This document shows, piece after piece, positions 12,130 to 48,828 of a stretch of 48,828 nucleotides of DNA (position 1 is its first letter; every line of letters begins with the position of its first letter). The notes beneath the pieces were generated by a model. The model was given only the letters and a program-made list of their open reading frames with translations, did not search any database and was not told the DNA's origin. The stretch comes from a virus (Duplodnaviria > Heunggongvirae > Uroviricota > Caudoviricetes). A program made the translations under genes and the position numbers. The DNA lies in IMG/VR virus record IMGVR_UViG_3300045988_154803; one strand, given 5' to 3'.

Positions 12130-12153
12130 ATAAAAAAGCCCCCGAAGGGGCCT
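12130..12153. terminator. Hairpin terminator (U-run on minus strand, A-run on plus)
   Basis: gcccccgaaggggc stem-loop flanked by A6 on plus strand. Confidence 0.5.
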
Positions 12154-12773: not shown

Positions 12774-12873
12774 TGCGCCATTGGTGGACACTTTCCGAGC
12801 CGTAGCAAAATCTACGGCCGGGATTGGAACCCCGATAATCATCATGGCGCATACCGCGTTAGCGGTTTTTTTA
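12774..12873 (+). ncRNA. Candidate small RNA (~100 nt) ending at intrinsic terminator
   Basis: Candidate promoter TTGTCT-N17-TATTGA; internal hairpin ccgtagcaaaatctacgg; terminator ccgc-gtta-gcgg + T7 at 12854-12872. Confidence 0.3.
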
Positions 12874-13037
12874 TGCGTAAAGCACTGCTACACCCAAATT
12901 ATGGTGGGGCGTGCGGGGGAGTCGTAAGACTCGCCGGATTCCATGGTGACCGGTAGTTCCAACCCTGTACGTCTCACCACCCAATGATTGGAACCAGACG
13001 GTGGTGAGTATCCTTAACCTTTAAGGGAACTATCACC

Positions 13038-13229
13038 ATGACAAACTTACCCCATGACTATTACGTCAACCTCGTAAAGATCCTTCTCAAGAAAGCCTCA
13101 TACGCCGATAAACTCCGCCTGGCTGAAATCATCGAGCGCGAAGCTATGCGCATCGCCAGCAACGATAACGCTGTTTCTGACGCAAAAATCTCCCTCGTAA
13201 CCAAAGTAGTTATGGGAGGTACAAAATGA
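13038..13229 (+). CDS. Small protein upstream of antirepressor
   Basis: 63-aa ORF with stop/start overlap (ATGA) to antirepressor. Confidence 0.4.
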   Translation: MTNLPHDYYVNLVKILLKKASYADKLRLAEIIEREAMRIASNDNAVSDAKISLVTKVVMGGTK

Positions 13230-14368
13230 AAACGCTTCCGACCGTTAACACCCTACAGCCTATCCTGCATAACCAGATCCCCGTTATCACTAGTGAACTT
13301 CTGGCGCAGTTATACGGAACAAAAATCAAAAACATTTCTGATAACTTTCTGAACAACACGACGCGATTCATAGCCGGAAAGCATTACTTTAAAATTGAAA
13401 AAAACGAATTACGCGAGTTCAAGAACAGACCTGAAACAATCGGGTTAGTTGGTAAAAATGCCCGCTCCCTAATTCTCTGGACCGAACACGGAGCAGCCCG
13501 TCACGCCAAAATGCTCGAAACCGATCAGGCTTGGGATGTGTTCGAAAAACTGGAAGACTGCTATTTCAACCAGAACGCACAAACGGCCGCGACCGTAACC
13601 GTCTCACCAAACAATGCTCGTGAGGTTGTCGATACGCTCAACGCCAAACCGATGTTTTACATTAAAGTGTGCAACAACGAGCCACTCACAACCTCAGCCG
13701 ATGTTGCCCAGGCATTCAGCACCACAAACAATTCCATCGTTATGGCCATCGATGCGTTACGCATTCCTCGCACAGCTGCGGCGCGTCATTTCTTTAAAGA
13801 GCAACGACCGTTGGAAGGAAGCGACCGCGAAATAACAATCTATCGCATGACAAAAGACGGATTTACCTTGCTCATGGAAAGTATCGACGGTCCAGGCGTG
13901 AAGGATATCAAGCTGGCCTACATTGAAGCCTTTAACGCTATCAGCAGCGTGTTAAAAACACAGTACGAGCGCGATCTGGCTAAACGACTGTACCAGGAAA
14001 AAACGATTATCCGCGCGGCAACAGAGCATAATCGGCTATTAACGGAACCGAACTACAGGAAGGAACTAATCAAGGAGTTTGACAAGGCAACAGGGAAAAC
14101 CAAAGCGGCGCTAAGTCTGCCAGCAATGACTCAGGAAAATGTGATATCAGCCTTACTTCTTGATCTGCTCAGAAACGCCAGAGCACTTATCAGCTTTGAC
14201 GAAAACCTGAATCCTCAGCTCAAGCTACTACCACCGACAGGCAAAGTAGTCGACCAGGCTGATCACAACAGCATACTCAGCGTACTGGATGCAAACCTGC
14301 CAGCCAGGACACTACAGGATCTGATAAAAACATGTGCTGATAAGCTGGCACAGAAAAGCAGACCATAA
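13226..14368 (+). CDS. ant: Antirepressor-like protein (ORF6N/KilA-N-type N-terminal domain + Rha-like domain)
   Basis: N-terminal IPVITSELLAQLYGTKIKNISDNFLNNTTRFIAGKHYF; central PLTTSADVAQAFSTTNNSIVMAIDAL. Confidence 0.7.
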   Translation: MKTLPTVNTLQPILHNQIPVITSELLAQLYGTKIKNISDNFLNNTTRFIAGKHYFKIEKNELREFKNRPETIGLVGKNARSLILWTEHGAARHAKMLETDQAWDVFEKLEDCYFNQNAQTAATVTVSPNNAREVVDTLNAKPMFYIKVCNNEPLTTSADVAQAFSTTNNSIVMAIDALRIPRTAAARHFFKEQRPLEGSDREITIYRMTKDGFTLLMESIDGPGVKDIKLAYIEAFNAISSVLKTQYERDLAKRLYQEKTIIRAATEHNRLLTEPNYRKELIKEFDKATGKTKAALSLPAMTQENVISALLLDLLRNARALISFDENLNPQLKLLPPTGKVVDQADHNSILSVLDANLPARTLQDLIKTCADKLAQKSRP

Positions 14369-16079: not shown

Positions 16080-16460
16080 TTACTTAACGAGGAATAAAAA
16101 TGGTTTATTGTTCGGCGGTGTAATCGGGGCTGGCTCGCTTTTGCTCATGCGATCAGTGTACCAGGCCAACTCCTTGTCAAAGTAAGCCTGATTAAAATAG
16201 GCCATGAATGTAGTTTCAAATCCATAACGACCGCTAATACGCAGCATCTGATTGCCGTTCTCTGTTTCCAGATATACCTGGGCACGTTCCTGATTCTCCT
16301 TCAGCCAGGTTAAAGCCTCATCGCATGAGGACACACGATACTCATCATCGTAGCAGTCATCGATGCGGCTTGAGGAAGAACGGCAAATCACGCCAACAGA
16401 ACCAGCCAGGATAGTTTGAATTTTAAGGAAAGCGTTTTTGCGGATTTTAATCATGCTCAT
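16080..16460 (-). CDS. Hypothetical protein (first gene after leader cassette B)
   Basis: 126-aa ORF starting exactly at end of conserved leader. Confidence 0.5.
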   Translation of the reverse strand: MSMIKIRKNAFLKIQTILAGSVGVICRSSSSRIDDCYDDEYRVSSCDEALTWLKENQERAQVYLETENGNQMLRISGRYGFETTFMAYFNQAYFDKELAWYTDRMSKSEPAPITPPNNKPFLFLVK

Positions 16461-16580
16461 CGGGTTATCTCCGGTTTAACCAGGGCGGGTATCGCTCGGT
16501 TTCGGGTATAACCTTAGGAATTTTTTTCCCACCTGTAAAGCACTTTTTATATAAATATATAATTATATAATTCTATGAGC
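16461..16580 (-). promoter_or_regulatory. Conserved promoter/5' leader cassette, copy B
   Basis: Near-identical to copies A and C; palindrome TATATAATTATATA at 16556-16569. Confidence 0.6.
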
Positions 16581-16582
16581 AC

Positions 16583-16607
16583 AAAAAAGCCCCTTTGCAA
16601 CAGGGGC
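16583..16607 (-). terminator. Intrinsic terminator after higA-like gene
   Basis: Minus strand gcccc-tgttgcaaa-ggggc followed by T6. Confidence 0.55.
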
Positions 16608-18732: not shown

Positions 18733-19713
18733 TTAATGTTGGAGTGATTTCCAGGTCTTTCTTAGCCTGTTATAACGCTGCTCAACGAGGGATCGTAAAT
18801 ATGCAAGGTCAGCACCTGGATACATGCCATCAGCAAATTCCTGGCTAACCTCTCTAGTGATTTGATGACGAAGTTCGGCCTCTCCCTTTTCCTGAACAAG
18901 ACGCGCAGCTCTCTCCGCTGCTTTCTGTTTTGCCTTTATCTCTCTGGCCGTCTTCCTCTGACGCCATACATTCTCCATCTGCTCCTGAATAACAATACGC
19001 TTATAATCAGCCTCCGTTATCGCTTTTTTAAGCCGTTCGCTATTCTTCGCATTGAAGTAATTAAGTTTCTGGCTAACCGCACGTCTCCATGCTTGTTCAG
19101 TAATACCAACGATTTCCAGCAGTTGATCACGAATCTCTATTTTCGCTGGCCAATACTGTTTATTCACCCGATCCCAGCGACGTTCATAATCAATAAAACC
19201 TAACGCTTTCAGTTGCGACAACGCCCTTGTACAGCGCGTTATAGACTTGTTCCCAGCTTCGGATACGGTAGACAGGCCGCAAAAATCAGCCAACGCCTCA
19301 GCACTGGCCAGAACCCGCTTAGAAATGATGTTTACATGGTGCAAAATCGCAGCAATCACAGCATTAATCGCCCGACGACGATGCTCGTTTATCCGGCGTT
19401 TCCGCTCTGACGGTTGATTAACGTAGAACGCAACCTCACACGTAAGATCACGACCATTAATGCGCTGTAAAGCATCAGATAACACCAGCGGCAGCTTGTG
19501 CGTATGGTGCTTTGGAGGCTGGAACTCCGGCGACAAATTACAAACGTAAGCTGAACGTAGAGACGGCATTGGTCTATCCATATGTTCGCTCTTGCGTCCA
19601 CGGAAAACCAACGTATAATGGGAGTTGTCGAGGCGCCCATGGATTGTTTTTGTTGGTTTTCCGTGGATGTCGCAAGAAGCCCGCAGATTTATCTGCGGGC
19701 TTTTTGTTTCCAT
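18733..19713 (-). CDS. repA: IncFII-type RepA replication initiator (RepA1-like); true start possibly internal
   Basis: RRRAINAVI...GLSTVSEAGNKSITRCTRALSQLKALGFIDY aligns by eye to R1/R100 RepA1 block RRRAIDALL...GLATESAAGKLSITRATRALTFLSELGLITY (recalled). Confidence 0.8.
   Translation of the reverse strand: METKSPQINLRASCDIHGKPTKTIHGRLDNSHYTLVFRGRKSEHMDRPMPSLRSAYVCNLSPEFQPPKHHTHKLPLVLSDALQRINGRDLTCEVAFYVNQPSERKRRINEHRRRAINAVIAAILHHVNIISKRVLASAEALADFCGLSTVSEAGNKSITRCTRALSQLKALGFIDYERRWDRVNKQYWPAKIEIRDQLLEIVGITEQAWRRAVSQKLNYFNAKNSERLKKAITEADYKRIVIQEQMENVWRQRKTAREIKAKQKAAERAARLVQEKGEAELRHQITREVSQEFADGMYPGADLAYLRSLVEQRYNRLRKTWKSLQH
19679..19710 (+). terminator. Plus-strand intrinsic terminator antisense to repA 5' region (candidate CopA-like RNA 3' end)
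   Basis: gcccgcag-atttat-ctgcgggc followed by TTTTTGTTT. Confidence 0.4.
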
Positions 19714-20539: not shown

Positions 20540-20563
20540 ACGGTAAACCGAGCCGGGAACGCC

Positions 20564-21400
20564 GTGCAAAAAAATGGCGATACCTTGTCCGGTGGACTTA
20601 CTTTTGAAAACGACTCAATCCTTGCCTGGATTCGAAATACTGACTGGGCAAAGATTGGATTTAAAAATGATGCCGACAGCGATACTGATTCATATATGTG
20701 GTTTGAAACAGGTGACAACGGCAATGAATATTTCAAATGGAGAAGCCGCCAGAGTACCACAACAAAAGACCTGATGACGCTGAAATGGGATGCACTAAAT
20801 ATTCTTGTTAATGCCGTCATTAATGGCTGTCTTGGAGTTGGTACGACGAATGCACTAGGTGGTAGCTCTATTGTCCTTGGTGATAATGATACCGGATTTA
20901 AACAGAATGGAGACGGTATTCTTGATGTTTATGCTAACAGTCAGCGTGTATTCCGTTTTCAGAATGGAGTGGCTATTGCTTTTAAAAATATTCAGGTAGG
21001 GGATAGTAAAAAGTTCTCGCTATCCAGCTCTAACACATCCACGAAGAATATTACCTTTAATTTATGGGGTGCTTCCAACCGTCCAGTGGTTGCAGAGTTA
21101 GGCGATGAGTCCGGATGGCATTTCTATAGCCAGCGAAATACAGATAACTCGGTAATATTTGCTGTTAATGGTCAGATGCAACCCAGCAACTGGGGGAATT
21201 TTGATTCCCGCTATGTGAAAGATGTTCGCCTGGGTACGCGAGTTGTTCAATTGATGGCGCGAGGTGGTCGTTATGAAAAAGCCGGACACACGATTACCGG
21301 ATTAAGAATCATTGGTGAAGTAGATGGCGATGATGAAGCCATCTTCAGGCCGATACAAAAGTACATCAATGGCACATGGTATAACGTTGCGCAGGTGTAA
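20564..21400 (+). CDS. Alternative tail-fibre C-terminal variable domain (promoterless; fused to constant N-terminus after inversion)
   Basis: Frame open from crossover site; C-terminus ...RPIQKYINGTWYNVAQV parallels expressed fibre C-terminus ...RPIQYCINGTWYNAGSI. Confidence 0.75.
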   Translation: MQKNGDTLSGGLTFENDSILAWIRNTDWAKIGFKNDADSDTDSYMWFETGDNGNEYFKWRSRQSTTTKDLMTLKWDALNILVNAVINGCLGVGTTNALGGSSIVLGDNDTGFKQNGDGILDVYANSQRVFRFQNGVAIAFKNIQVGDSKKFSLSSSNTSTKNITFNLWGASNRPVVAELGDESGWHFYSQRNTDNSVIFAVNGQMQPSNWGNFDSRYVKDVRLGTRVVQLMARGGRYEKAGHTITGLRIIGEVDGDDEAIFRPIQKYINGTWYNVAQV

Positions 21401-21403
21401 GTT

Positions 21404-21931
21404 ATGCAGCATTTAAAGAACATTAAGTCAGGTAATCCAAAAACAAAAGAACAATATCAGCTAACAAAGAATTTTGATGTTATCTGGTTATGGTCCGAAG
21501 ACGGTAAAAACTGGTATGAGGAAGTAAATAACTTTCAGGACGACACCATAAAGATTGTATACGACGAAAATAATATTATTGCCGCCATCACCAAAGATGC
21601 CTCCACGCTTAACCCTGAAGGTTTTAGCGTTGTCGAGGTTCCTGATATTACCGCCAACCGACGTGCTGATGACTCAGGTAAATGGATGTTTAAGGATGGT
21701 GCTGTGATTAAGCGGATTTATACGGCTGACGAACAGCAACAACAGGCCGAATCACAAAAGGCCGCGTTGATTTCCGAAGCTGAATCAGTCATCCAGCCGC
21801 TGGAACGCGCTGTCAGGCTGAATATGGCAACAGACGAGGAACGCACACGACTGGAAGCATGGGAACGCTACAGCGTTCTGGTCAGCCGTGTGGATACGGC
21901 AAATCCTGAATGGCCACAAAAGCCTGAATAA
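21404..21931 (+). CDS. Tail fibre assembly chaperone (alternative orientation)
   Basis: Paralog of 21960-22493 product ([22 protein letters not shown] vs [22 protein letters not shown]). Confidence 0.75.
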
Positions 21932-21959
21932 AAATTAAGGCCCGATAGCGGGCCTTGTT

Positions 21960-22493
21960 TCATTCTGGTTGTTCTGGAAACGTTACTGGCAGGCTGGAGG
22001 TGTCTGTGGATTCGACCTTCTGCGCATAGAGCATCCACTCGGTTAATTTTTGTTTATTCTCGTTGGAAATGATACCCAGCCGTAGCTGTGAGTCCCATAG
22101 CTGGGTTTTATCCCTGACGAGCTGTAGCAGGCTTTGCTTTTCATTTTCCGCTTGTTGCCTCTGCTCTTCCTCGGTATAAGTTCGCTTTATCACTACGCCA
22201 TCTTTGAACAACCATTTCCCCGAAATATCAGCCCGGCGATTTGCTGTAATATCAGGTAATTCAACGACGCTTGCGCCTTCCGGATTAATTGCTGAAACAT
22301 CCTTTTCAATACAAATAATAACGCCGTTATGGTCATAGACCATTTTCAAAGTGTCTGGCTGGAAATTCTTTTGTTCCTCATACCAGTTTTTTCCATCATC
22401 TGAATAAAGCCATTTGATGTTAAATTGCTTTGTTAGCTGGTATTGCTCTTTTGTTTTAGGGTTGCCAGCAGTAATGTTTTTTAAGTGCATCAT
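21960..22493 (-). CDS. Tail fibre assembly chaperone (currently expressed orientation)
   Basis: Immediately downstream of tail fibre gene; Tfa-like sequence. Confidence 0.8.
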   Translation of the reverse strand: MMHLKNITAGNPKTKEQYQLTKQFNIKWLYSDDGKNWYEEQKNFQPDTLKMVYDHNGVIICIEKDVSAINPEGASVVELPDITANRRADISGKWLFKDGVVIKRTYTEEEQRQQAENEKQSLLQLVRDKTQLWDSQLRLGIISNENKQKLTEWMLYAQKVESTDTSSLPVTFPEQPE

Positions 22494-22495
22494 CG

Positions 22496-24814
22496 TTAAA
22501 TACTCCCCGCGTTATACCACGTCCCATTAATGCAATACTGAATTGGCCTTGCCTGTGTTGTATCAATTAATTCATCACGGTTTCCGTTAACTGAACCCGT
22601 AACGACATAACCTGACCTGTCAGACCAGCCGGGGCCATTCCATGTCTGAACAGATGACAGACCGCCAAGGCGAATACCTGTAATAAACCTTGAGTTACAT
22701 TCTGCCTGCGTATATGCACCAACATCTCCCGCAGAGGGTTTGCGGGTTGTGGTGTAAAACTCTGACCAGTCAGCTTCAAAGCCATAACCATCACGCGCTG
22801 AACGATAAAAGATTCCGCCATTTCTGTAATTCACGCGGAACTGTGCAGCAGGGCAGCTCCCCGTATTCATATTGAAGTGGAGGATTAATGTCGATGCGCC
22901 ACCAATATTTGCGTTATAGACCCCGCTATTCCAGTTCCAGCCAACAGCTTTATCATTTCCGACAGTGCTTCCTGTTTGCCCTAAAGCAAATGCAGGTTGT
23001 TGATTTTTCGTGTTGTAGTCTCGTCGCCAGCCAGGAGCGTAAGCATCACCATGATTAATATAAGTGAATTGAGCGTTAGTAATTCCTCCACCGCTGGACG
23101 TGCTCGGCGTGGTAACGCGTATGGTCATTGCGCCGCGAGTGCCAATAACTTCCACCACAGCACCTGCAAGACAAATATTTCCGCAACCTGTATCTGTAAT
23201 GACCTTATTATTTGCATAAGCCCATGAGCCTTTGCACATCCAGTAAGGATGGTTAAATGCTCCCTGACTCTCCAGCCACGAAATAAATTGCGCGGTTGTC
23301 CAGACCTGACTATCGCCACCAATATCCAGCCATGCGCTATATGCGCGGCAGGCCCCAATATTTTTGGTGAAGGTATCTTTTCCCGGAATATCTGCGCCGT
23401 TCTGGTTTTTCTGTAATGCGCCAGAAGCCTGATTTACCGTTTCCTGTAAACCGAGGTATTCGATAACGGCAGCAACGGTCGATTTCGCAAGAATATCCCG
23501 CCCGACTTTTGTCAGGGTTGCCAGGCTGGCGACATCATTCCCCGTAAAATACGGAAACTTGTCTGCCGCAGTAGCAAGCCCGGCCAGCGCCGTCAGGGTG
23601 GCATCTTTCGGTTGCTTACCCGCAAGCGCGTTAGTCATGGTGGTCGCAAAATTCGGGTCGTTTCCCAGCGCCGCCGCTAACTCGTTCAGCGTATTCAGTG
23701 CGTCAGGTGACGAGTCCACGAGGGCAGCGATCGCAGCCATAACGAAAGCCGTGCTTGCGATTTGGGTATTATTCGTTCCCTGTCGCGCAGTTGGCGTTGT
23801 TGGCGTTCCGGTCAACGCAGGACTGTTTAAGGGCGCTTTCTTGTTCGTTTCATCCATTACCGCCTTGACCGCTTTCGATGTCGCGGCCAGTGTTTCAGAC
23901 GTGCTGTTGGTGGAACTACTGAGCTGAGTTATTCCCCTTACAGTCAGTGAAGCTACAGGCACATTTGTTATCTGCTCCCACGAATGCGTGTGATTGGACG
24001 GAGCCTTTCCGGCCGCAAGATCATACGCTGCCTTAACAGCCTTTGGTGTTGCTGCTAGCGTTTCAGACGTGCTGTTGGTGGCACTACTGAGCTGAACAAT
24101 CCCTTTTCGCGCTGTGGTAGCGTCCTGTGCGGTGTATTTGCCATTAGCCAGGTCATATGCTGCCTTAACAGCCTTAGGCGTCGCAGCAAGCGTTTCAGAC
24201 GAGCTATTGGTGGCGCTGCTAAGTTGAACAAAGCCTTTTGAGGTTAAAGTTGCATCAGGATGATTACGTGATTGTTCATGTTTCACAATGGCTTGCTTAA
24301 GCCGCTTTGCTGAAACAGCAAGGGAATCATCTGTACCGTCATCAATTTCTTGTTCATTGGCAAATCTTGCAACCCCAACAACAGTTTCGGTTGCGGGAGG
24401 ATTAATAAACTCAATATCACCAAATGTAATATTTTTAGTATCAAGAGTCTTGATTGCTATGTCACTTGATATTAAAGCAATAGTAGATGATGCTTTATTT
24501 ATTATTGCTTGTTCTTGCGAGTATACAGCAAACAACGTTCCCTTATTTGTATACAATCCTATTGTATGGACAACATACTCATCTTTACTATCATCCTTCG
24601 CCGTTACATGAATTGTATCAGGGGAAACAACTTTGCCACCTATTGTGGTAAGTCGTTTTATTTCGTTTGTTATATTTGTTTGTGAAGTTGACGTGACATA
24701 ATATCTACTACCTAAACCAACAGAAACAATCTCAACTTTATTTGTTCCTGTTTTGTTGGCATTAACCAGCTCCTGACGCCCGGCGTCAGTCATCGTAAAT
24801 AATAATTTACTCAC
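22496..24814 (-). CDS. Tail fibre protein (constant N-terminal ~450 aa outside, variable C-terminus inside invertible segment)
   Basis: 772 aa; repeated SSATNS(T/S)SETLAATPKAVKAAYD collar-like motifs; crossover site lies inside the ORF. Confidence 0.85.
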   Translation of the reverse strand: MSKLLFTMTDAGRQELVNANKTGTNKVEIVSVGLGSRYYVTSTSQTNITNEIKRLTTIGGKVVSPDTIHVTAKDDSKDEYVVHTIGLYTNKGTLFAVYSQEQAIINKASSTIALISSDIAIKTLDTKNITFGDIEFINPPATETVVGVARFANEQEIDDGTDDSLAVSAKRLKQAIVKHEQSRNHPDATLTSKGFVQLSSATNSSSETLAATPKAVKAAYDLANGKYTAQDATTARKGIVQLSSATNSTSETLAATPKAVKAAYDLAAGKAPSNHTHSWEQITNVPVASLTVRGITQLSSSTNSTSETLAATSKAVKAVMDETNKKAPLNSPALTGTPTTPTARQGTNNTQIASTAFVMAAIAALVDSSPDALNTLNELAAALGNDPNFATTMTNALAGKQPKDATLTALAGLATAADKFPYFTGNDVASLATLTKVGRDILAKSTVAAVIEYLGLQETVNQASGALQKNQNGADIPGKDTFTKNIGACRAYSAWLDIGGDSQVWTTAQFISWLESQGAFNHPYWMCKGSWAYANNKVITDTGCGNICLAGAVVEVIGTRGAMTIRVTTPSTSSGGGITNAQFTYINHGDAYAPGWRRDYNTKNQQPAFALGQTGSTVGNDKAVGWNWNSGVYNANIGGASTLILHFNMNTGSCPAAQFRVNYRNGGIFYRSARDGYGFEADWSEFYTTTRKPSAGDVGAYTQAECNSRFITGIRLGGLSSVQTWNGPGWSDRSGYVVTGSVNGNRDELIDTTQARPIQYCINGTWYNAGSI
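23441..23466. repeat. Right inversion crossover site (gix/hix-like)
   Basis: TTCCTGTAAACCGAGGTATTCGATAA, close to Mu gixL as recalled. Confidence 0.85.
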
Positions 24815-37351: not shown

Positions 37352-38440
37352 TTAATTTTTATCGCGGTTTTTAAATACTGACCCAATAACATTTTTTACT
37401 ACTTCAGCTTGTTTATCTCCGTTGTTTTCTGGTTGATTAACATCAACTGAATCATTCACCTCATTTGCGTCTTCTTGCCGTTGATTAAGAAAGTTTTTGT
37501 TACGCGCTCGCTCTGCATTCATAATTTCCAAAGCAAGTTCAGCCGCAGAAACTCCCGTTTTGAATTTTGCATTCTTAACCAGGTCGTCATGACCTGGAAT
37601 CACGCTATTCTCGATTGTTTCAATGCGCTCGCGTTCTGATTTAACGCCCTCGTCTTTACCAGCATTAAAAACCTGATTGTATAATTCTGGATGTTTATTT
37701 TTTAATTCATCAAGAGTCACAACATCGTCCTCATTTTGTTCATTTAATTCAGTAGATAATTCATTTTTATTTTGTGGCAACTTTGCGAGCGAATCAGGTA
37801 ATTTTGAAAACCTTGATGCTTCAAAAGTTATTCCATTGAGCGAAAGCATCCCTTCCTTTATAGAAGCGGATAAGCGCATTGGTTTTTCAACTTCGTCAGC
37901 AAATCCAAGCTCTACAGCCTCTTCTGCATTTAGCCATGTTTCCTGATCCATTAGTTCAATTAATTTATCCTCAGAAAGCCCTGTTTTCTCCTTATATGCA
38001 GATAAAATACTATCTCGTATCTTATCCATCATCTCAGCAATATCACGTAGTTCATCCGCATCACCAGCAGCAAATGTCCACGGATTATGGATCATCATCA
38101 TAGCATTAGATGGGATAACAACTTTATCACCTGCCATTGCAATAATGGTTGCAGCCGATGCAGCAATACCATCAATATAAACAGTAATATTAGCCTTATG
38201 ACGTTTTAATGAAGAAAGAATAGCTTGAGCAGTAAAAACAGAACCACCATAACTATTAATTTTTACGTTGATAGCATTTGATGATATATCCTTTAATTTA
38301 TTAACTATGTCAGAAGAAGAAACCTCATCAAATTCGCCAATATATCCGTAGATTAAAAGTTCAGCCGGAGAGTCATCTTCACCCGTGCTATTTTTTATTT
38401 CCCACCAATTAGGCATCATCTGTCTCCATATTTTGTTCAT
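37352..38440 (-). CDS. Head maturation protease/scaffold (S49/ClpP-like, lambda gpC-like)
   Basis: INSYGGSVFTAQAILSSLKRHKANITVYIDGIAASAATIIAMAGDKVV protease core; acidic C-terminal half. Confidence 0.85.
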   Translation of the reverse strand: MNKIWRQMMPNWWEIKNSTGEDDSPAELLIYGYIGEFDEVSSSDIVNKLKDISSNAINVKINSYGGSVFTAQAILSSLKRHKANITVYIDGIAASAATIIAMAGDKVVIPSNAMMMIHNPWTFAAGDADELRDIAEMMDKIRDSILSAYKEKTGLSEDKLIELMDQETWLNAEEAVELGFADEVEKPMRLSASIKEGMLSLNGITFEASRFSKLPDSLAKLPQNKNELSTELNEQNEDDVVTLDELKNKHPELYNQVFNAGKDEGVKSERERIETIENSVIPGHDDLVKNAKFKTGVSAAELALEIMNAERARNKNFLNQRQEDANEVNDSVDVNQPENNGDKQAEVVKNVIGSVFKNRDKN

Positions 38441-39983
38441 TTACCTCAGAAACAGGAGGCGTAATCAGCCCCAACTCACGGCGAGCATTCTCTTCTCTGC
38501 CACAAATTTGTGCGGTTTCTTCCCAGTTAAGACCTGACATTTCAGCCGCTTCCTTTTCACGGGTAGAGAATGTTTCCTCAACACGCAGTTTTGCAGCTTT
38601 GACTTCTTTAAGGGGATCTAATTGGCCTTGTGATGGGCCATACCATTGAGCGCCACTCCATGCAGCGCGATATTCAGGCCCATAAAAAAAACCAGGGGCA
38701 ATAACACGACCTTTAGCAACGGCTTCGGCCAACCATTCCTCATAGATCGGTTGGCAAAATGACTGAACCATCCAGTCACGTCGCATACGGAACATTTTCC
38801 AGGCTTCAAGTAATGCGACCCTGCTTGCGCTATAACTTGCTGTAAAATGCTTTACCAAGAGTTCGTAAGGGAGTTCTAAAGCAGCCCCAATTTGACGGCA
38901 TATGGCGACAACAAAACCATCAAATGCCGTATTTGGTCGCCCGGGATTTGCTGTATCTATCGACTCACCTTCACCCAAACTTACTATGGAGCCATTCCCC
39001 ATTTCTTGGGTGTTATCATCATGGTTATCGATCTGCTCGTACTGAGGGATACCCGATTCACCGACTGGTCCATCAGGAGCGTCTGTTTTAATAAAGACAG
39101 TAAACATCCCTGACACAACCGCAGCAACCAATTCAGCATCGGTGTATCGTCCTAACTGCTTCAATGCTTCAATAACAGGAGCAAGGACAGGAACGCCACG
39201 ACGTTGCCCAGGCCTTTCAAAATCCTGCATGACATGCAGAATATTTCTTCTTCCTGTTTTACTCCCATATGCGGGAATACGTTCCCACTTGCGGGTTACA
39301 AAACCAGAAGTCCCGGCTGGGTGATGTTTTGCAACCCAGTACGCCACAGGCTCGCTAAATTCACCAACCTCTACGCCACCGTAAAGATTTGGTATAAAAC
39401 GATCCTCTGGATTGCAAACACGATCACCTTCAATTAAATAGACGCACAAATCATATATAACACCCTTACGCTTAATAACTGGTAGCGCAGCAAATATATC
39501 GCCAGATGTTAACGCAGATATTTGGACCAATGATTGCAATTGTCCAAAAGTACACATTCTTGATGCATCACAATTTGGAGAATCAGCCCATAATCTAAAC
39601 TCACGCTCAACATGCTTTTCCCATGCTCGCGCTTCTTCCTGCGTCATCCCCAAGAAATCGGCATCAATGTTCGCATTTAGTTTTAAACCGGAACCAACAA
39701 CGTTTGTCCTGATAGTTTTTATTGCGCCAACCGATAGCGGGTTTCCCATGAAGAGATCACGAGAACGCTCACGCAATTTATCTATATTTTTAACAATATC
39801 ATCATCAGGAGAACCAGCTTTACTAAACCAACCCCTTAATGATTTTTTATGAGTGCTTGCACCATGACGTGAATATCCAAGGTTATTAATACCTTCAAGT
39901 GCTTCTAACCGTTTTCTTGCCAAAGCTCGATTTAATGCCCTCTGAGGTGAAAACGGCGCAATAACTCGATCAAGAATATTCAT
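38409..39983 (-). CDS. Portal protein (lambda gpB-like)
   Basis: 524 aa; between gpW-like and protease. Confidence 0.8.
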   Translation of the reverse strand: MNILDRVIAPFSPQRALNRALARKRLEALEGINNLGYSRHGASTHKKSLRGWFSKAGSPDDDIVKNIDKLRERSRDLFMGNPLSVGAIKTIRTNVVGSGLKLNANIDADFLGMTQEEARAWEKHVEREFRLWADSPNCDASRMCTFGQLQSLVQISALTSGDIFAALPVIKRKGVIYDLCVYLIEGDRVCNPEDRFIPNLYGGVEVGEFSEPVAYWVAKHHPAGTSGFVTRKWERIPAYGSKTGRRNILHVMQDFERPGQRRGVPVLAPVIEALKQLGRYTDAELVAAVVSGMFTVFIKTDAPDGPVGESGIPQYEQIDNHDDNTQEMGNGSIVSLGEGESIDTANPGRPNTAFDGFVVAICRQIGAALELPYELLVKHFTASYSASRVALLEAWKMFRMRRDWMVQSFCQPIYEEWLAEAVAKGRVIAPGFFYGPEYRAAWSGAQWYGPSQGQLDPLKEVKAAKLRVEETFSTREKEAAEMSGLNWEETAQICGREENARRELGLITPPVSEVNEQNMETDDA

Positions 39984-40230: not shown

Positions 40231-42087
40231 CTATATGGTTACGCCTTTACTTATAACTCTACGGCGTCTTCTACGTATACCTGACGAGTTCTGCACATAC
40301 ACATTACCTCGCATTTCCTGTTCGGCAAGCCAGTTAAAATTAGGGTTCAGAATTTCCATCGCGGCAGTTGCATAGTTACGGCAATCAAGAGGCTCGTTAC
40401 GCTCGTAGACTTTCACCCACTTTTCTTTTGTCTGCCCATTTTTATATTCAAATATTTTCTTCTCTGATAATAATCCTTTAAAGTATTCGGTATCATATCC
40501 TCTGTCAGAATCTAATGGGAAATGCATATAACCAGGACCAGGATCATGTAGTTTAATTCTTGCCATGATGGTCCCTTTACCATCATCAACCCCCAAATTA
40601 AACAACATAGCACCCACACGGTTATTATTACTTGGCTTTCCTATAAATGGTAAACCTACCCCACCACGCCCCCTGATAGAGTATATTCGCCTTGATTCTC
40701 TCGGCTTAGTAAAGCGATATACCTCTGTCGTAAAATGCCCACCAGAGTCAATACAAACGGAAGAAATCTGTAATTTTCGACCGTCACGGAATGACCAGCT
40801 ACGGAGTAAGTATTCATCAAGTTGTTTCCAGACAACATCTTGTGCGGGATCACCTGGGAATATTTTATATTCTATCCCCCATGACTCCTTACCTTTTCCC
40901 CAACCGACCAATTCACAAACTAAATACGTGTCCTGTACGTCAACACCAGCACTTAACAATAAAACATCATCTGGTAAAAACTCTTCAAACCTTATTCTGC
41001 GTTGCAACAAGTATTCAGGATCGATATCGTCTTTAGCATCCTCTTTCCATGGCTCACCCAGCTTAAGGTTAATAAACTCCATTAATCCATTTTTATCGCG
41101 GTTTCTGGTTGCTTCCGTAAATTCTTCAACCAGCTCTGACAATGCAACCCACGGGGAGTAAAGACTGTTAATATGAAAACCAACAATACCTTTAACTCCA
41201 GTATGTTCAGCTATCCATACCCCCTTCGCCAACCAATCAACGTCTGGTTTACCAGATCCGCGCATAATCCCGCCGCACTCACAGCACTCATATCTGGCCG
41301 TTTCCGGTAACGCCTCACCTGAATCGCTCTTATCCCATCTGACTTGCGACCATTTCATCACCTGCATGGTGCCACAACATGGGCAAGGAACATGGTAGTA
41401 ACGCTGATCGGAGAGCTTAAACCACTTGTGGATTTTGCTCGTTTCCTCCAAAACAGGAGTAGAAACAAAAACTTTCTTACGATTATGAAAGTTGGTAGTA
41501 CGCTGAATACCTAGTTTTAGTGGGTCGCCCTCCTGCGTCACACCGTAACGATCAATCTCATCAGCTAACAGTATTCGAATTGGCCTGGATGCAAGACCTG
41601 CTGGGGAATTAGCACCAACAAGTGCTATATATCCACCAGCGTAATGCTTCATACGTATAGTCGTGCTGGACTTTTTGGCTGCACCGCGCCCCTCTTTCCC
41701 TTCATGCAGCTTGTGTTTCAAACCAGGGGAATATTTGAACGTCGGATCAATACGCTCTTTTGAAAAAGCCTCAGCCGCCTCTACCGTTGGATAAATCATC
41801 AACTGAGGAGATGGCTCCTGATCTGCAAAGTAACCCATAACATTTAGCTGTAATTCGGATTTACCAATTTGCGAGCTACATTGCATCACTACTGTTTCTG
41901 TATCAGCGTCACCAATAACATCCATTGGTTCACGCAAATATGGCACTCGGCTTGTACGCCACGGCCCTGGCTCTGGAGACGTTCCCGGCGCTACATGACG
42001 ATACTTATCAGCCCATTCGGAAACAGTTAGCCGTGATTTAGGGCGAAGCGCACGGAAAAAAGCGGTGCTCCATACTGTTTCGCCCAT
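40231..42087 (-). CDS. Terminase large subunit (lambda gpA-like)
   Basis: 618 aa; N-terminal ...TVSEWADKYRHV resembles gpA ...TAVEWADANYYL; ATPase/nuclease size class. Confidence 0.9.
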   Translation of the reverse strand: MGETVWSTAFFRALRPKSRLTVSEWADKYRHVAPGTSPEPGPWRTSRVPYLREPMDVIGDADTETVVMQCSSQIGKSELQLNVMGYFADQEPSPQLMIYPTVEAAEAFSKERIDPTFKYSPGLKHKLHEGKEGRGAAKKSSTTIRMKHYAGGYIALVGANSPAGLASRPIRILLADEIDRYGVTQEGDPLKLGIQRTTNFHNRKKVFVSTPVLEETSKIHKWFKLSDQRYYHVPCPCCGTMQVMKWSQVRWDKSDSGEALPETARYECCECGGIMRGSGKPDVDWLAKGVWIAEHTGVKGIVGFHINSLYSPWVALSELVEEFTEATRNRDKNGLMEFINLKLGEPWKEDAKDDIDPEYLLQRRIRFEEFLPDDVLLLSAGVDVQDTYLVCELVGWGKGKESWGIEYKIFPGDPAQDVVWKQLDEYLLRSWSFRDGRKLQISSVCIDSGGHFTTEVYRFTKPRESRRIYSIRGRGGVGLPFIGKPSNNNRVGAMLFNLGVDDGKGTIMARIKLHDPGPGYMHFPLDSDRGYDTEYFKGLLSEKKIFEYKNGQTKEKWVKVYERNEPLDCRNYATAAMEILNPNFNWLAEQEMRGNVYVQNSSGIRRRRRRVISKGVTI

Positions 42088-42092
42088 GAGGT

Positions 42093-42653
42093 TTATTCTT
42101 CCTGCTTAATAAATCGGGATTCCTGGAGCGCCTGAAGCGCAAAATTAATCTCGTCTTCAATAATGCGTTCGATCTCCCTGGCTGTTTTGCCTTCACAACG
42201 GGGAGCTGCTCTTGGAGCAATACTAAATAAGCGGCTACGCAATTCATTAGCTGCCAGAAATGCATCATCCCTGACCGCATCTTTAGCGATGAGAGAGCCT
42301 TCCTTTTCTTCAAATTCAAGGCGTTTCAGCTTTGCCTGATAAATTTTTTCTGCGGTCTTAGCCTTGTTGAATTGCACCGCAACACCGGAAGTACCACCAG
42401 CTAATCCGGCATCATCAGCGGGTAACTCTGGTTGTTCCGAAGATATCCCATGCCCTCTTTTTCCATTTTCAGCAGATACCTCACGACCAACCTGTCGGCT
42501 CGCTTCATAAGCCGCACTGGCTTTATCAAAATCCAGCTTGCCGCTTTTCAGCACTGGAATGCGACCGGAACGACAGAGCTTCGTAACCATTGCCGGAGAA
42601 ATACCTTTCCGGCGAGCAAACTCTGACTTACTGACGATGGCCATTACTTGCAA
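42093..42653 (-). CDS. Terminase small subunit (N-terminal HTH)
   Basis: 186 aa; MAIVSKSEFARRKGISPAMVTKLCRSGRI HTH; upstream of large subunit. Confidence 0.6.
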   Translation of the reverse strand: MQVMAIVSKSEFARRKGISPAMVTKLCRSGRIPVLKSGKLDFDKASAAYEASRQVGREVSAENGKRGHGISSEQPELPADDAGLAGGTSGVAVQFNKAKTAEKIYQAKLKRLEFEEKEGSLIAKDAVRDDAFLAANELRSRLFSIAPRAAPRCEGKTAREIERIIEDEINFALQALQESRFIKQEE

Positions 42654-43234
42654 CCATTAGCAAGATACTGAACAAATCCCTCATGCGTTTCATGCGCGTC
42701 GTGGTACTGACGATAAACATCCAGCAACAATGCAATTTCCATATCCGTCGCGGGAATACGTTCTTTATCAATAGCCAGGTACTTAATTTGAACAACAGGG
42801 GAAGAATTATCGTCTTCTTCCTGCGGCTGTTCATCGCTTAACATTTCGTCAAGCTCTGCATCATTAAACCCAAGCAGATCAATATCAAAATCATCATCCA
42901 TTAACTCTTTGACTTCTTCGGCCAGAAGCTGCATATCCCAGCCAGCATTTAAGGCCAGCTTGTTATCTGCAATCCTGTAAGCCTTCTTCTGTTTTTCAGA
43001 AAGGTTACTCAACCGAATCGCCGGAACTTTATCCATTTCCAGAATTTCGGCTGCTGCAAGCCGACCATGCCCCGCAATCAGTTCATTCTTTTCATCGATC
43101 AGCACAGGATTAGTGAAACCGAACTCACGGATACTGTTCACCAACTGTTCAACCTGCTCATCTGAATGAGTCCGTGAATTTTTGGCGTATCTGAGCAGCT
43201 TACCGACTGGTAAATATTCGATTTTTAGAGCCAT
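42644..43234 (-). CDS. ParB-like nuclease domain protein (paralog 1)
   Basis: ParB/Srx N-domain: ...TNPVLIDEKNELIAGHGRLAAA...; paralogous to 45901-46524. Confidence 0.8.
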   Translation of the reverse strand: MALKIEYLPVGKLLRYAKNSRTHSDEQVEQLVNSIREFGFTNPVLIDEKNELIAGHGRLAAAEILEMDKVPAIRLSNLSEKQKKAYRIADNKLALNAGWDMQLLAEEVKELMDDDFDIDLLGFNDAELDEMLSDEQPQEEDDNSSPVVQIKYLAIDKERIPATDMEIALLLDVYRQYHDAHETHEGFVQYLANGCK

Positions 43235-43791
43235 TTTTTAACCGCCATAACACAACAGGTTAAAGAAAACTGTTTAACTTATTGATACTAAAAGAGAAAA
43301 ATGACGATCTTTTTACTCATAAAAAATCACACAAACCAGCATAATCATCTGATTTTATTAAGTTTTTATAAGTAAAAAGGATCTTGAGATGGTGTTTTGG
43401 TTAAAATATTGGATGTATTTGCATGATTTATAACGATTTTTATCAGAACAACATCACATTGGTTAAAGATCTGCGCGTATCTTGATGATCTAAAAGAAAA
43501 TTTTCTACTTTCTTTTTACCAGCACAAATACAGCAAAAAATCACGTTTTCCCGATATTTTTCAATGAGATGAGTAAATTTCTTTTACCGCAACTTTTAAC
43601 CTAACTTTTTTCACGTTTAGCTAGCCGAACATCGGGGTTCGAATGACCCGCATCCAACGCTTTTGGCCAGAAGGACCCAATTCTGCCGGACGATGAAACG
43701 ATGCTCGTGCTCCCCCACAGACAGCCAGCGAGCGACGCTACAGAACACAGTGAATACACTCTGCATAACAACACCATCAACCACACGATGA
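43235..43791. promoter_or_regulatory. AT-rich 557-bp non-coding region upstream of packaging operon (candidate late promoter and/or cos site)
   Basis: No credible ORF; AT-rich with homopolymer runs; lambda-type terminase implies a cos site nearby. Confidence 0.3.
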
Positions 43792-44527: not shown

Positions 44528-45907
44528 CTACTTAATCAACGGCCGGAAAGCCGCCAGCACATCATCAGATCGTCCGATTGTTGAACCACCAGGCAACGGC
44601 AACTCAAACTCAAAACGAACAGCTTTCTCCAGACTCGCCCAACTAAGGGAATCATCGTTAATGACGTGCAAATACCAGCTCTTACAGTTGAATATTGACC
44701 GCTTAATCCTGAAACCATGTACACGACACAACTGCTTCACTTCATCATCAGAGTGAAACTTCTGGTAAAACCAGTGCCCCTTCCGGTACAACGCGGTAAA
44801 ACCGTTATGATCAATAAAATAAAGCCGGCTTTTGGAACTCGCCGCTTGTGTTTGCTTCAGGACTGTTTCCAGCTCTCCACGGCTACGACCAGAAAAGAAT
44901 ATTGACCCACCAGCTTTACACAGGCCTTTTAGAACCGTCAGAACGGACCATTCAGCCTCGACACTATCGACCGAGTTCAAAACGCTATCGCAAATCACGT
45001 AGTCGTAACGCCCTCGCGTTTTTAAGTCGTCCACCAGCGTATCAATCATCCGGTTTGTTGCGGCCCTATCCAGAGTGTTTCCAGCGCCCTTACGGCGGAA
45101 AAGCTCGAGATCATGCAGGTTATATCCCTTTGCCCTGAGCATTCGCGCGTAGTCTCCCTGCCCCGAACCAAAATCAATTCCTCTTGGCGTCTTGGCAATG
45201 ATCGGGAGGATCAACGACTCATACAGATTTGATTTCAGGCTGCCACCATTACGCAACCGCATAAGCTGCGCATACGTCTGGATGTATGTTGTTTTCTCCA
45301 GATGAGAATACTCAAATACACCATAAGTTTTATTCAGATAACTTTGGTATTTTTCCTTCTCAACATCAGGGATCACAAACACCGTTAGCGGTGTGCGCGT
45401 CATTTTCGCTGCTAATGCATACTGAGCACAGTGAATAACCTCACCAGACTGAGTAGCAACACAACCACCCCACGGACCATACTTGATAACCAGTTCCGCT
45501 ATGTTCTTTCGAACATATGCCATTTTCGCGCGCATATTGCCTGAGATCTGGCTTGCCGATACCTGAACAAAACCATGCTTATCTTCCAGACCGGACACCC
45601 TGCAACGCTCATCTCCGCTATCAAAATCCGTTCCGTTATGCAGTTGGTTAAACCGTACTTCGTCGTATACCGTCGTTTCACAGGGCAACACATACACCGC
45701 AGCACGCGTTATTCCCAACTTACGTAGCGCCTTCGTCCTTTGGTGTCCCGCCACCAGCAAATCGCCGCGCACTATCAATGGCTTCACAAGCCCCAGCTCC
45801 CTGACGCTTTCCGCCAGCCTCGCAAGATCATCCTCACCGATAAAACGCGGGTTATATTCCGCGCCGCGTAGGTGCGTTATGTCGTAATTGAGGTGAAGCA
45901 TCAGCAC
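44528..45907 (-). CDS. ParB N-domain fused to class I SAM-dependent methyltransferase
   Basis: N-terminal ...LVKPLIVRGDLLVAGHQRTKA (ParB-like); C-terminal GIDFGSGQGDYARML ... DYVICDSVL (Rossmann motif I/post-I); no DPPY/W motif. Confidence 0.65.
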   Translation of the reverse strand: MLMLHLNYDITHLRGAEYNPRFIGEDDLARLAESVRELGLVKPLIVRGDLLVAGHQRTKALRKLGITRAAVYVLPCETTVYDEVRFNQLHNGTDFDSGDERCRVSGLEDKHGFVQVSASQISGNMRAKMAYVRKNIAELVIKYGPWGGCVATQSGEVIHCAQYALAAKMTRTPLTVFVIPDVEKEKYQSYLNKTYGVFEYSHLEKTTYIQTYAQLMRLRNGGSLKSNLYESLILPIIAKTPRGIDFGSGQGDYARMLRAKGYNLHDLELFRRKGAGNTLDRAATNRMIDTLVDDLKTRGRYDYVICDSVLNSVDSVEAEWSVLTVLKGLCKAGGSIFFSGRSRGELETVLKQTQAASSKSRLYFIDHNGFTALYRKGHWFYQKFHSDDEVKQLCRVHGFRIKRSIFNCKSWYLHVINDDSLSWASLEKAVRFEFELPLPGGSTIGRSDDVLAAFRPLIK

Positions 45908-46524
45908 ACCTCCCCAGCCAGCAATGCGGATACAAATCCGATATAGCTGCCATTATCATCAACATAACGAGACACCGCGCAGTCAAAACGATCCGCTTCC
46001 TCATCCGTTGCCGGGATTTTATGACCTCCAAATGACAGGTACTGAACTTTTACGCCTGATTTGGCCTCATCCTTCTCAAATGGGATATCCATACCCTCTG
46101 TGTCATCGTAGACCGCCGCACTCAATAAGTTATCCAGTTCGCGCTGAGTAAAACCAATTGAGTCCAGAGCAAAATCATCGGCCGCAAGATCTGCAAGCTC
46201 CGCGCTTAACAGCTCTTCATCCCAACCAGCATTCAGCGGAATACGGTTGTCGGCCAGACGATATGCCTTCTTCTGATTCTCCGTTAGCCCTTCCAGAACA
46301 ATGCAGGGAACATCATCCATCCCCAACTGAGTGGCCGCAGCAATTCGACCATGACCAGCAATTACAACGTTGTTCTCGTCTATCAGGATCGGATTAGTCC
46401 ATCCGTACTCCTGTATGCTGGCAACAATCTGATCTACCTGCTCCACGGAGTGTGTGCGAGCGTTCTTTTCATAACCAATCAACACAGAAAGTGGTAAAGA
46501 AACCACATTAAGATGTTTTGTCAT
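45901..46524 (-). CDS. ParB-like nuclease domain protein (paralog 2)
   Basis: ...TNPILIDENNVVIAGHGRIAAA...; overlaps start of fusion gene (coupled). Confidence 0.8.
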   Translation of the reverse strand: MTKHLNVVSLPLSVLIGYEKNARTHSVEQVDQIVASIQEYGWTNPILIDENNVVIAGHGRIAAATQLGMDDVPCIVLEGLTENQKKAYRLADNRIPLNAGWDEELLSAELADLAADDFALDSIGFTQRELDNLLSAAVYDDTEGMDIPFEKDEAKSGVKVQYLSFGGHKIPATDEEADRFDCAVSRYVDDNGSYIGFVSALLAGEVC

Positions 46525-46695: not shown

Positions 46696-46766
46696 TGAGG
46701 CAGCTTTGGTTTGCGCATTATCGCAGCCCCTGGTAAGCACAAGAGCTGCTGTAATGCTAAAAAAAC

Positions 46767-46788
46767 AAAACCACCCGCAGGTGGTTTT
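46767..46788. terminator. Bidirectional intrinsic terminator
   Basis: aaaccacc-cgca-ggtggttt with T-runs on both strands. Confidence 0.6.
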
Positions 46789-46816
46789 ATAAATAAATAG
46801 CAAACAGGTATCTGCA

Positions 46817-47260
46817 CTAATCAGATAAACCAAACTTCTTCTTTGCCAATGACTTGAGAAGTTCTACACCAACATCCTTCATAACAGCCAATGGCTCATT
46901 GCTAATTTCTTTTAGTCTAGCGAAAACATCTTTGCTCTCTAGTGCACAGGCAAAATCCTGTCCCTCTGTAGTCAATCTAATATCTACATCAACAGTCCTC
47001 ATTCCTGCCAAAAAATTAACATAGCCAAGACGCAGAGGATCACGCGTTTCCATCTTCATATTGCTGATAAAACCTTGCTCAATCAATTGCATATAATGAA
47101 ACATGCCCTTTTCTGAGGCTATATCAAACCCCGCGTCTCTTAGTTGATTTACTGTTATGAACGTGCTTTCTGAATCCAAAAACACAGTCAGCATCTTTTT
47201 TAGATAATCTAGATCGGTGCGCATTTTACCCTCCTTAAATGGAACGCAAATGTTACACAA
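46817..47260 (-). CDS. Hypothetical protein
   Basis: 147-aa ORF; probable start at internal MRTDLDYL. Confidence 0.4.
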   Translation of the reverse strand: MCNICVPFKEGKMRTDLDYLKKMLTVFLDSESTFITVNQLRDAGFDIASEKGMFHYMQLIEQGFISNMKMETRDPLRLGYVNFLAGMRTVDVDIRLTTEGQDFACALESKDVFARLKEISNEPLAVMKDVGVELLKSLAKKKFGLSD

Positions 47261-47311
47261 CCTTTAAAAAAAGACACATTGTTTTATTTATGCCTCATTT
47301 TAATCGACCAA

Positions 47312-47464
47312 TTACTGCCTAAATTTATCAATAAATAATTGCTCCCGCTTACGCCGAAAAGCTCTCTGCGCCACTAAGATGCGCCACAGGACACCAGCGA
47401 TAACCACCAGCGAGATACAAAAACACACGGCCACAACCATCAGAAAAATGCCAACACCATTCAT
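47312..47464 (-). CDS. Small hydrophobic peptide (50 aa; TM helix plus basic tail)
   Basis: Hand-translated MNGVGIFLMVVAVCFCISLVVIAGVLWRILVAQRAFRRKREQLFIDKFRQ; ATGA overlap with upstream ORF; below ORF-track cutoff. Confidence 0.3.
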   Translation of the reverse strand: MNGVGIFLMVVAVCFCISLVVIAGVLWRILVAQRAFRRKREQLFIDKFRQ

Positions 47465-47667
47465 GAAACTATCCATTCTTCAATGAATATCTCCAGTAAT
47501 GTCAAGAGATACGCCGTCCCCAGCGCGGTTCCTACCGATATAGCTAAGACAAACCTCAAAGATAACGAGGTGTCTTTCGCTTTTCTCCAGACGTAAGCGC
47601 CAGCCAGAAATACCAACAAATCTCTTATTGGAAGCGGAAACCAGAACAAATCACTCGGCAAGTCCAC
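47461..47667 (-). CDS. Small membrane protein
   Basis: 68 aa, two hydrophobic segments. Confidence 0.35.
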   Translation of the reverse strand: MDLPSDLFWFPLPIRDLLVFLAGAYVWRKAKDTSLSLRFVLAISVGTALGTAYLLTLLEIFIEEWIVS

Positions 47668-47669
47668 GG

Positions 47670-48125
47670 TTATATCCTTCCATTCATTTTTATCGGATGA
47701 CCAGATAGCCTTACGCAGTTGAGCTGTAAAGCTCCGGTATCAACTAAATAATCAACTAACATGATTAGAGATTCATATTCAGCCAGACAGCTAACCTGAC
47801 GCATTCGACCGCCGTTGTTCTCCAGAATGTCGGCCACCTTTGCAGCCAACTCGCTTAGACAGGAGAACTTATTCCCATATATCGTTTTATACTCGCGCTT
47901 CTGGCATTCTTCGGCTTGCGGCTGGTTATCGAGAGCTATCATCGACCGATAACTATCAAGGAAGTCCACAATCTCATTCAGGCACTCTTTGGCTGCCTCA
48001 TCGTGACTTTTTCCGTATGCTTCATGGAGGACTTTCATCCTCATCATTGCTCCGTCACACATAATCGAAAGCGCGTAAAGCACATCACTAATCGCCATTT
48101 CTTTTTTGGTGCTTGTCGAAGGCAT
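47670..48125 (-). CDS. Hypothetical protein
   Basis: 151-aa ORF with AGGAG RBS. Confidence 0.45.
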   Translation of the reverse strand: MPSTSTKKEMAISDVLYALSIMCDGAMMRMKVLHEAYGKSHDEAAKECLNEIVDFLDSYRSMIALDNQPQAEECQKREYKTIYGNKFSCLSELAAKVADILENNGGRMRQVSCLAEYESLIMLVDYLVDTGALQLNCVRLSGHPIKMNGRI

Positions 48126-48199: not shown

Positions 48200-48400
48200 T
48201 TAATGCTCGCGTCGTCCGGCGACAACTTCGGATTTGTATTTCAGATCGCCCAGCAAGAATTGCAGTTTAAGCATCTTTGCCGCCGTGTAGTTCCCTGATT
48301 CCACAACCTCTTTCATGAGGTCATAAACGGCCGCAACATCATCAGCCAGGAACTCTTTACGTTGCTGCTCAGTCGCACGTTTGAAGGAAATACGCATCAC
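48200..48400 (-). CDS. Small hypothetical protein
   Basis: 66-aa ORF coupled to upstream gene. Confidence 0.35.
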   Translation of the reverse strand: MMRISFKRATEQQRKEFLADDVAAVYDLMKEVVESGNYTAAKMLKLQFLLGDLKYKSEVVAGRREH

Positions 48401-48666
48401 TCATCATCTCCTGCCGCACATACAACCTCACAAAAAACATCAGCGGAATGTTTCTTTTTGAATGAATGGCGCTCAAAACCGCACTCAATATCAGGCGCAA
48501 AAACATCCACCACATACGGTCTTTCAGAATGTTTGTTTTCCCAACGATAAACCGTAGTGACGTTGAAATGTTTTAACGCTTCACGGAACTCAACGCTGCC
48601 AGTCAGGTTTTTTGAGGTCAGGTATTGCAGGAGGTTTTTTACTACTTCACGGTCTTGTACTTTCAT
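48397..48666 (-). CDS. Hypothetical protein (first gene after leader cassette C)
   Basis: 89-aa ORF starting exactly at end of conserved leader. Confidence 0.45.
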   Translation of the reverse strand: MKVQDREVVKNLLQYLTSKNLTGSVEFREALKHFNVTTVYRWENKHSERPYVVDVFAPDIECGFERHSFKKKHSADVFCEVVCAAGDDE

Positions 48667-48785
48667 CGGGTTATCTCCGGTTTAACCAGGGCGGGTATCG
48701 CTCGGTTCCGGGTATAACCTTAGGAAATTTTTTCCCACCTGTAAAGTACTTTTTATATAAATATATAATTATATAATTCTATGAC
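48667..48785 (-). promoter_or_regulatory. Conserved promoter/5' leader cassette, copy C
   Basis: Near-identical to copies A and B; palindrome TATATAATTATATA at 48762-48775. Confidence 0.6.
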
Positions 48786-48828
48786 ACTTGCCAGAGAGCA
48801 TCATGCAATTGGATACCTCCATTGCACT
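48771..48828. repeat. Terminal overlap identical to 52-109
   Basis: Direct comparison. Confidence 0.9.

Follow-up and report, generated by a model that had tools for sequence, protein, structure and literature searches.

The 58-bp terminal repeat of a 48,828-nt phage-plasmid contig as the assembly overlap of a circular 48,719-bp genome

The stretch of DNA analysed here (the window, 48,828 nt in all) carries genes of both phage and plasmid type (Table 1). The plasmid functions comprise an IncFII-type replication initiator, a ParA-type partition ATPase and, in the annotation of the collinear Escherichia coli plasmid p48, a RelE/ParE toxin-antitoxin pair belonging to the maintenance module. The phage functions include an XRE/S24 repressor-like immunity gene, the large and small terminase subunits (TerL and TerS), and a head module with a portal, a ClpP-like protease and capsid E. 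The annotation of p48 adds a tail module with sheath, tube, tape measure, baseplate and fibres, and a lysis module with holins and an endolysin. Neither the RefSeq annotation of p48 nor domain scans of the open reading frames of the window revealed an integrase or a protelomerase; the sole recombinase is a Hin-type invertase. The window thus combines virion, packaging and lysis genes with plasmid replication and partition, lacks an integrase in these scans, and has relatives that are recorded as autonomous plasmids. The replicon is a phage-plasmid, kept in enterobacteria as a circular, non-mobilizable plasmid.

The packaging genes are of the lambda type, with a GpA-family TerL adjacent to TerS. 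The module resembles those of lambda and of N15-type cos phages by its TerL, its lambda-family portal, its ClpP-like protease, its capsid E and its lambda gene order. It differs from these by its contractile tail (sheath and tube genes), by a TerL only ~28% identical to the lambda-like genes annotated as 'terminase DNA packaging protein A' (tblastn), and by the lack of a protelomerase. Since a lambda-type GpA terminase implies packaging at a cos site, the DNA is probably packaged from such a site into a contractile-tailed virion. We also considered an N15-like linear plasmid and rejected it: no protelomerase was found in the p48 annotation or in the large open reading frames that were scanned, and the records of p48 and of the Yersinia phage vB_YpM_39 are circular.

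Table 1. Coordinates of the features of the window, in order of position.
Feature	Position	Strand	Basis or remark
Adapter remnant	1-51	+	1-10 P5 tail AGATCTACAC; 11-18 i5 index '518' CTATTAAG; 19-51 Tn5ME-A TCGTCGGCAGCGTCAGATGTGTATAAGAGACAG
58-mer, true genomic position	52-109	+	distal end of cassette C (52-65) plus the final codons of MT-A70
Non-redundant circular unit, complete phage-plasmid genome	52-48770	.	48,719 bp; collinear with p48 and vB_YpM_39
MT-A70 family DNA methyltransferase	60-647	-	Pfam PF05063, E=2.4e-23; same annotation in relatives
tRNA gene	956-1031	-	anticodon CAT
Gene headed by cassette A	5929-6996	-	DUF3560/primase-like; start 6996
Cassette A	~6983-7110	-	self-BLAST, alignment
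XRE/S24 repressor-like gene (immunity)	9690-10346		
ParA-type partition ATPase	10949-11617	+	Pfam CbiA/ParA/MipZ; 'ParA family protein' in p48
ryfA RNA	12132-12427	-	Rfam
isrK RNA	12799-12872	+	Rfam
C4 antisense RNA	12897-12984	+	Rfam
ORF6N/Rha antirepressor-like gene	13226-14368	+	
Gene headed by cassette B	16080-16460	-	phrog_8090; start 16460
Cassette B	~16457-16585	-	self-BLAST, alignment
IncFII-type RepA replication initiator	18733-19713	-	Pfam PF02387, E=4.2e-44; repA in p48
Hin-type invertase, 184 aa	19895-20449	-	domain scan
Invertible tail-fibre segment	~20550-23460		
Tail-fibre-assembly gene	21404-21931	+	
Tail-fibre-assembly gene	21960-22493	-	
Portal protein, lambda family	38409-39983	-	Pfam PF05136, E=1.5e-100
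Terminase large subunit, lambda gpA type	40231-42087	-	Pfam GpA_ATPase 7e-76, GpA_nuclease 1e-84
Terminase small subunit	42093-42653	-	phrog_57, E=7e-42
ParB_N-domain (ParB/Srx) protein	42644-43234	-	
AT-rich intergenic region, candidate cos region (a guess)	43235-43791		557 bp
ParB_N-domain (ParB/Srx) protein	44528-45907	-	
ParB_N-domain (ParB/Srx) protein	45901-46524	-	
Gene headed by cassette C	48397-48666	-	phrog_6143, 89 aa; start 48666
Cassette C	48653-48770 into 52-65	-	self-BLAST, alignment
58-mer, redundant second copy, read as assembler overlap, to trim	48771-48828	+	exact identity; simulation; single copy in relatives

The junction of the two ends of the window cuts through one copy of a cassette of ~125 nt that occurs three times, each time directly upstream of a gene and including its ribosome-binding site and ATG. 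The cassette holds a perfect 14-nt AT palindrome (TATATAATTATATA), and its leader is predicted to fold better than shuffled sequences (z = -3.6). Copy B follows an intrinsic terminator (16609-16587), and a consensus scan found no sigma-70 promoter in this copy. The cassette resembles a regulated promoter with its leader, common to the three genes. It might be an uncharacterised module, controlled by an activator or a repressor, that switches three operons of the lineage in concert, a tentative proposal that we hold somewhat less probable than its opposite.

The last 58 bases of the window repeat positions 52-109. A self-comparison confirmed the identity reported in the sequence-only reading at 58 of 58 bases, for which the chance expectation in 48.8 kb is about 1e-26 (~1.4e-26). 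No longer suffix of the window recurs anywhere in it, and the non-redundant unit contains no exact repeat longer than 53 nt. The right copy is flush with the last base of the window, while the left copy begins at the first base that does not belong to an adapter (see below). The 58-mer covers the 3' end of the MT-A70 gene, whose TAG stop codon lies at 60-62 on the minus strand, and joining the ends places this gene next to cassette C, as had been noticed from the letters of the window. The relatives have a single copy of the 58-mer: it was found at 22 places in 22 related plasmid records (single copy in 22/22), once each in p48 and vB_YpM_39 in whole-window alignments, and once in each of the three Yersinia phage records, of which vB_YpM_39 is one.

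That the repeat begins on the left at position 52 rather than at position 1 is explained by the first 51 bases, which are assembled adapter read-through. By its sequence, this segment is contamination, the remnant of an Illumina Nextera i5 adapter, and not part of the genome; it had been overlooked in the sequence-only reading. Its parts follow in the order of the adapter, from the P5 tail through the 8-nt i5 index and TCGTCGGCAGCGTC to the 19-nt Tn5 mosaic end, which occurs only once in the window, at 33-51. The Tn5ME-A oligonucleotide of Nextera tagmentation, printed verbatim in PMC4248319, equals the 33 nt at 19-51. The i5 index primer '518' is printed in PMC8225968 as AATGATACGGCGACCACCGAGATCTACAC-CTATTAAG-TCGTCGGCAGCGTC, and its end equals the first 32 nt of the window. 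The agreement with the published oligonucleotides for index 518 is base for base over the 51 nt, with the difference that the 29-nt P5 segment is cut down to its last 10 nt, and hence that the contig starts inside the adapter. None of the aligned relatives has a match to these bases, all alignments beginning at position 52.

We then asked for the genomic context of the joined ends with a 2-kb junction query, made of the 1 kb ending at 48770 and the 1 kb starting at 52, in three collections and with a coverage of at least 80% in one place. The junction is contiguous, as one BLAST piece, in 55 plasmid records of PLSDB and in 64 complete genomes of E. coli. The top matches cover the query entirely in a single piece with 98-99% identity. 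Among the matches listed, the records covering the junction are plasmid records of 46-57 kb, not chromosomes, and all PLSDB matches are typed as non-mobilizable. The junction is also contiguous in the records of three Yersinia phages, vB_YpM_39, 41 and 44. The whole window is a collinear circular permutation of p48, where window position 52 corresponds to 19489 and 48770 to 19490, and likewise of vB_YpM_39, where the junction falls at 44081/44082. Both records were deposited as circular. The window itself provides internal evidence for the join: a 37-nt string spanning the junction, ACTTTTTATATAAATATATAATT followed by ATATAATTCTATGA, recurs unbroken at 16542, in copy B of the cassette, so that the cassette reads through the junction as it does in the internal copy. 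Subtracting the adapter (51) and the overlap (58) from 48,828 leaves a unit of 48,719 bp. The closed circular replicon of about 48.7 kb proposed in the sequence-only reading is therefore supported by the contiguity of its joined ends in relatives, and its length can be refined to this value.

The closest relatives show that the replicon is of a known kind. Plasmid p48 of E. coli (NZ_CP023368.1, 48,774 bp, circular) aligns to it in segments that are mostly 96-99.9% identical, with one 1.6-kb tail-fibre block at 90%. Like p48, dozens of non-mobilizable plasmids of 46-51 kb in Escherichia, Shigella, Salmonella and Klebsiella are collinear with the window over most of the genome. The features in common with p48 include RepA, ParA, the RelE/ParE toxin-antitoxin pair, the lambda-type head, the contractile tail and the Hin-type invertase. 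Relative to p48-type plasmids, blocks are replaced at ~3.2-5.2 kb, at ~20.8-23.4 kb (the tail-fibre region) and at 46.76-47.34 kb. The segments 3203-5203, 46757-47337 and 47660-47953 have no megablast-level alignment to p48 and/or vB_YpM_39, and stand as mosaic replacements in a backbone of 96-99.9% identity. The Yersinia phages (OR545053-55, ~49 kb, unclassified) are ~99% identical to the window over nearly the whole unit. One of them, vB_YpM_39 (OR545053.1, 49,027 bp, circular), differs by small indels and by the opposite orientation of the tail-fibre segment 21194-23457, which has the same orientation in p48 as in the window. These near-identical genomes were deposited as phages, with Y. 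pestis EV76 as the host of isolation, which suggests that the lineage makes infective particles. Overall, the replicon is one more isolate of a lineage for which dozens of samples exist, and the result overturns no open question.

We searched the literature for descriptions of this lineage. No paper describing vB_YpM_39, 41 or 44 was found, and we retrieved no published group name for the ~48-kb lineage from a search that included the work on phage-plasmids and on C4 antisense RNA. The name vB_EcoM-613R2 is mentioned once in this literature, as a ParB-carrying prophage. The Y. pestis myophage vB_YpM_HQ103, described as 'plasmid-like pseudolysogenic', is unrelated, being a 32-kb peduovirus. SSU5-type elements are presumably ~100 kb long, compared with 48.7 kb for the replicon described here. 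We tentatively dropped pSLy3 as a group name on account of this difference in size, since papers place it in the SSU5 supergroup.

These observations lead us to interpret the repeat as an assembly overlap. With a probability of about 0.95, the 58 bp result from a de Bruijn-graph assembler writing a closed cycle of 48,719 bp as a linear string. A k-mer overlap at the ends of contigs is the usual criterion to call viral and plasmid contigs 'complete circular'. The commonest SPAdes settings are 55, 77 and 127, and 58 is not known as an overlap that they leave. Since 58 = 59-1, it is a consistent guess that the assembler used k=59. Since no exact repeat in the unit exceeds 53 nt, the graph of the replicon is one unbranched cycle when k is at least 55. 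Under the scenario that we propose, a few untrimmed reads from short inserts would have continued into the Nextera i5 adapter, and would carry ...CTGTCTCTTATACACATCT adjacent to base 52 of the genome. These reads would form a dead-end 'tip' joining the cycle at this base. The node 52-109 would then be the sole branch node in the graph, so that the cycle would be opened there, with unitigs beginning and ending at this node. The 51-nt adapter tip would be prepended, and the 58-nt sequence of the node (k-1 for k=59) would be left at both ends.

To simulate this process, we took the circle from the window itself, added a single read carrying the adapter, and constructed a toy de Bruijn graph whose nodes are 58 nt long (k=59). 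Two unitigs result, of 109 and 48,777 nt, and the long one starts and ends with the 58-mer. Merging them yields a string of 48,828 nt that is identical to the window, base for base. At k of 54 or less, the toy graph breaks at cassettes A and B. The simulation shows that the tip explanation is sufficient, not that it is necessary. The adapter-tip model accounts for the exactness of the repeat, independent of its length, and for its position flush with the adapter. The repeat resembles the overlaps left by assemblers in circular contigs in being exact, terminal, single-copy in independent assemblies and of a fixed length unrelated to biology, and it is unlike the usual ones in that its left copy was pushed 51 nt inward by the adapter tip. 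A 77-bp repeat closing a phage circle was similarly attributed by its authors to assembly (PMC11177050). That the repeat marks an assembler closing a circle had been suggested from the sequence, and the exactness, the end-flush position, the single copies in relatives and the simulation all agree with it.

The form of the DNA that was sequenced is a separate matter. The template may have been linear, cos-ended virion DNA or replication concatemers. The repeat would still be an assembly artefact and the map circular, while the ends of the molecule would lie elsewhere, and the assembly would close only by the annealing or ligation of the cos ends, or by way of concatemers. The lambda-type TerL, the TerS, the portal and the capsid E are consistent with this scenario, as is the deposition of near-identical genomes as phages isolated on Y. 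pestis. Furthermore, the records of these phages all begin at window position 43648/43649, in an AT-rich intergenic stretch that precedes the terminase cluster, a location typical of cos sites. We nevertheless regard a virion template as rather unlikely, since most relatives, by a large margin, were deposited as circular plasmids of bacterial isolates, and the window itself is silent on which form was sequenced. A virion template is compatible with the assembly overlap as the main explanation of the repeat. Whether the template was plasmid or cos-ended virion or concatemer DNA, the interpretation of the repeat is unchanged.

Other interpretations of the repeat would change the nature of the molecule. 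If the 58 bp were a genuine direct terminal repeat in the style of T7, the genome would be linear, from 52 to 48828. An assembly of such a genome would indeed show exact terminal repeats, and the single copy in plasmid relatives is not sufficient to exclude it, given that a direct terminal repeat collapses to one copy on circularisation. However, the TerL combines GpA_ATPase and GpA_nuclease domains, as in the lambda cos type, and is not the enzyme of phages with direct terminal repeats. The left edge of the repeat abuts the Tn5 mosaic end, i.e. an internal cut by the transposase and not a natural DNA end. The junction lies within a conserved cassette present in three copies, 8 nt from the stop codon of MT-A70 and ~5 kb from the cos-like terminase region in which the three phage records begin, and these records themselves hold one copy of the 58-mer. 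A direct terminal repeat is thus very improbable, and with it the fallback offered in the sequence-only reading, a terminally redundant phage genome. Flanking direct repeats are also the signature of integrated elements, and the 58 bp could in principle border a linear insert, as the attL/attR of a prophage or as a target-site duplication, the window being an excised or mis-trimmed chromosomal segment. We give this even less credit. No integrase was found in the p48 RefSeq annotation or in the domain scans of the window, host DNA is absent outside the repeats (the left copy is preceded by adapter), the listed relatives covering the junction are all plasmid records of 46-57 kb and none is chromosomal, and the 58-mer is single-copy in every relative.

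The assembly-overlap interpretation establishes that the window is a single complete genome, 48,719 bp long, and it is of practical more than of scientific value. There is nothing new in the repeat itself, which is an artefact that correctly signals a complete circular map. Positions 1-51 (adapter) and 48771-48828 (duplicate) need to be trimmed before deposition, gene calling or comparison. If they are left in place, the record has a spurious partial copy of the 3' end of MT-A70 and a foreign 5' end. The replicon is a member of a widespread and apparently unnamed lineage of ~48-kb phage-plasmids in Escherichia and its relatives, which according to the deposited records also infects Y. pestis EV76.

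Several other loci of the window deserve mention. Upstream of the ParB_N, TerS and TerL genes, the AT-rich intergenic region of 557 bp contains reiterated motifs of the AAAAG type. It is a candidate cos region, whose position is a guess based on the start of all three Yersinia phage records there, and reading it by eye did not identify a cos site in it. Separate genes for three ParB_N-domain (ParB/Srx) proteins form a cluster beside the terminase genes. In one of the proteins, of 459 aa, a methyltransferase domain is fused to the ParB_N domain, and none of the three genes adjoins parA. The single tRNA gene is a tRNA-Met according to ARAGORN and to the phage record, and a tRNA-Ile according to RefSeq in related plasmids; it may be a lysidine-modified tRNA-Ile2. 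An ORF6N/Rha antirepressor-like gene is directly preceded by ryfA, isrK and a C4 antisense RNA, all identified with Rfam. This layout of C4 RNA and antirepressor is reminiscent of the immI region of phages P1 and P7, in which C4 controls an antirepressor. Finally, an invertible tail-fibre segment is accompanied by the invertase gene and contains two opposed tail-fibre-assembly genes that are 68% identical. The alternative C-termini of the fibre and the opposed assembly genes resemble the host-range switches Mu G and P1 C.
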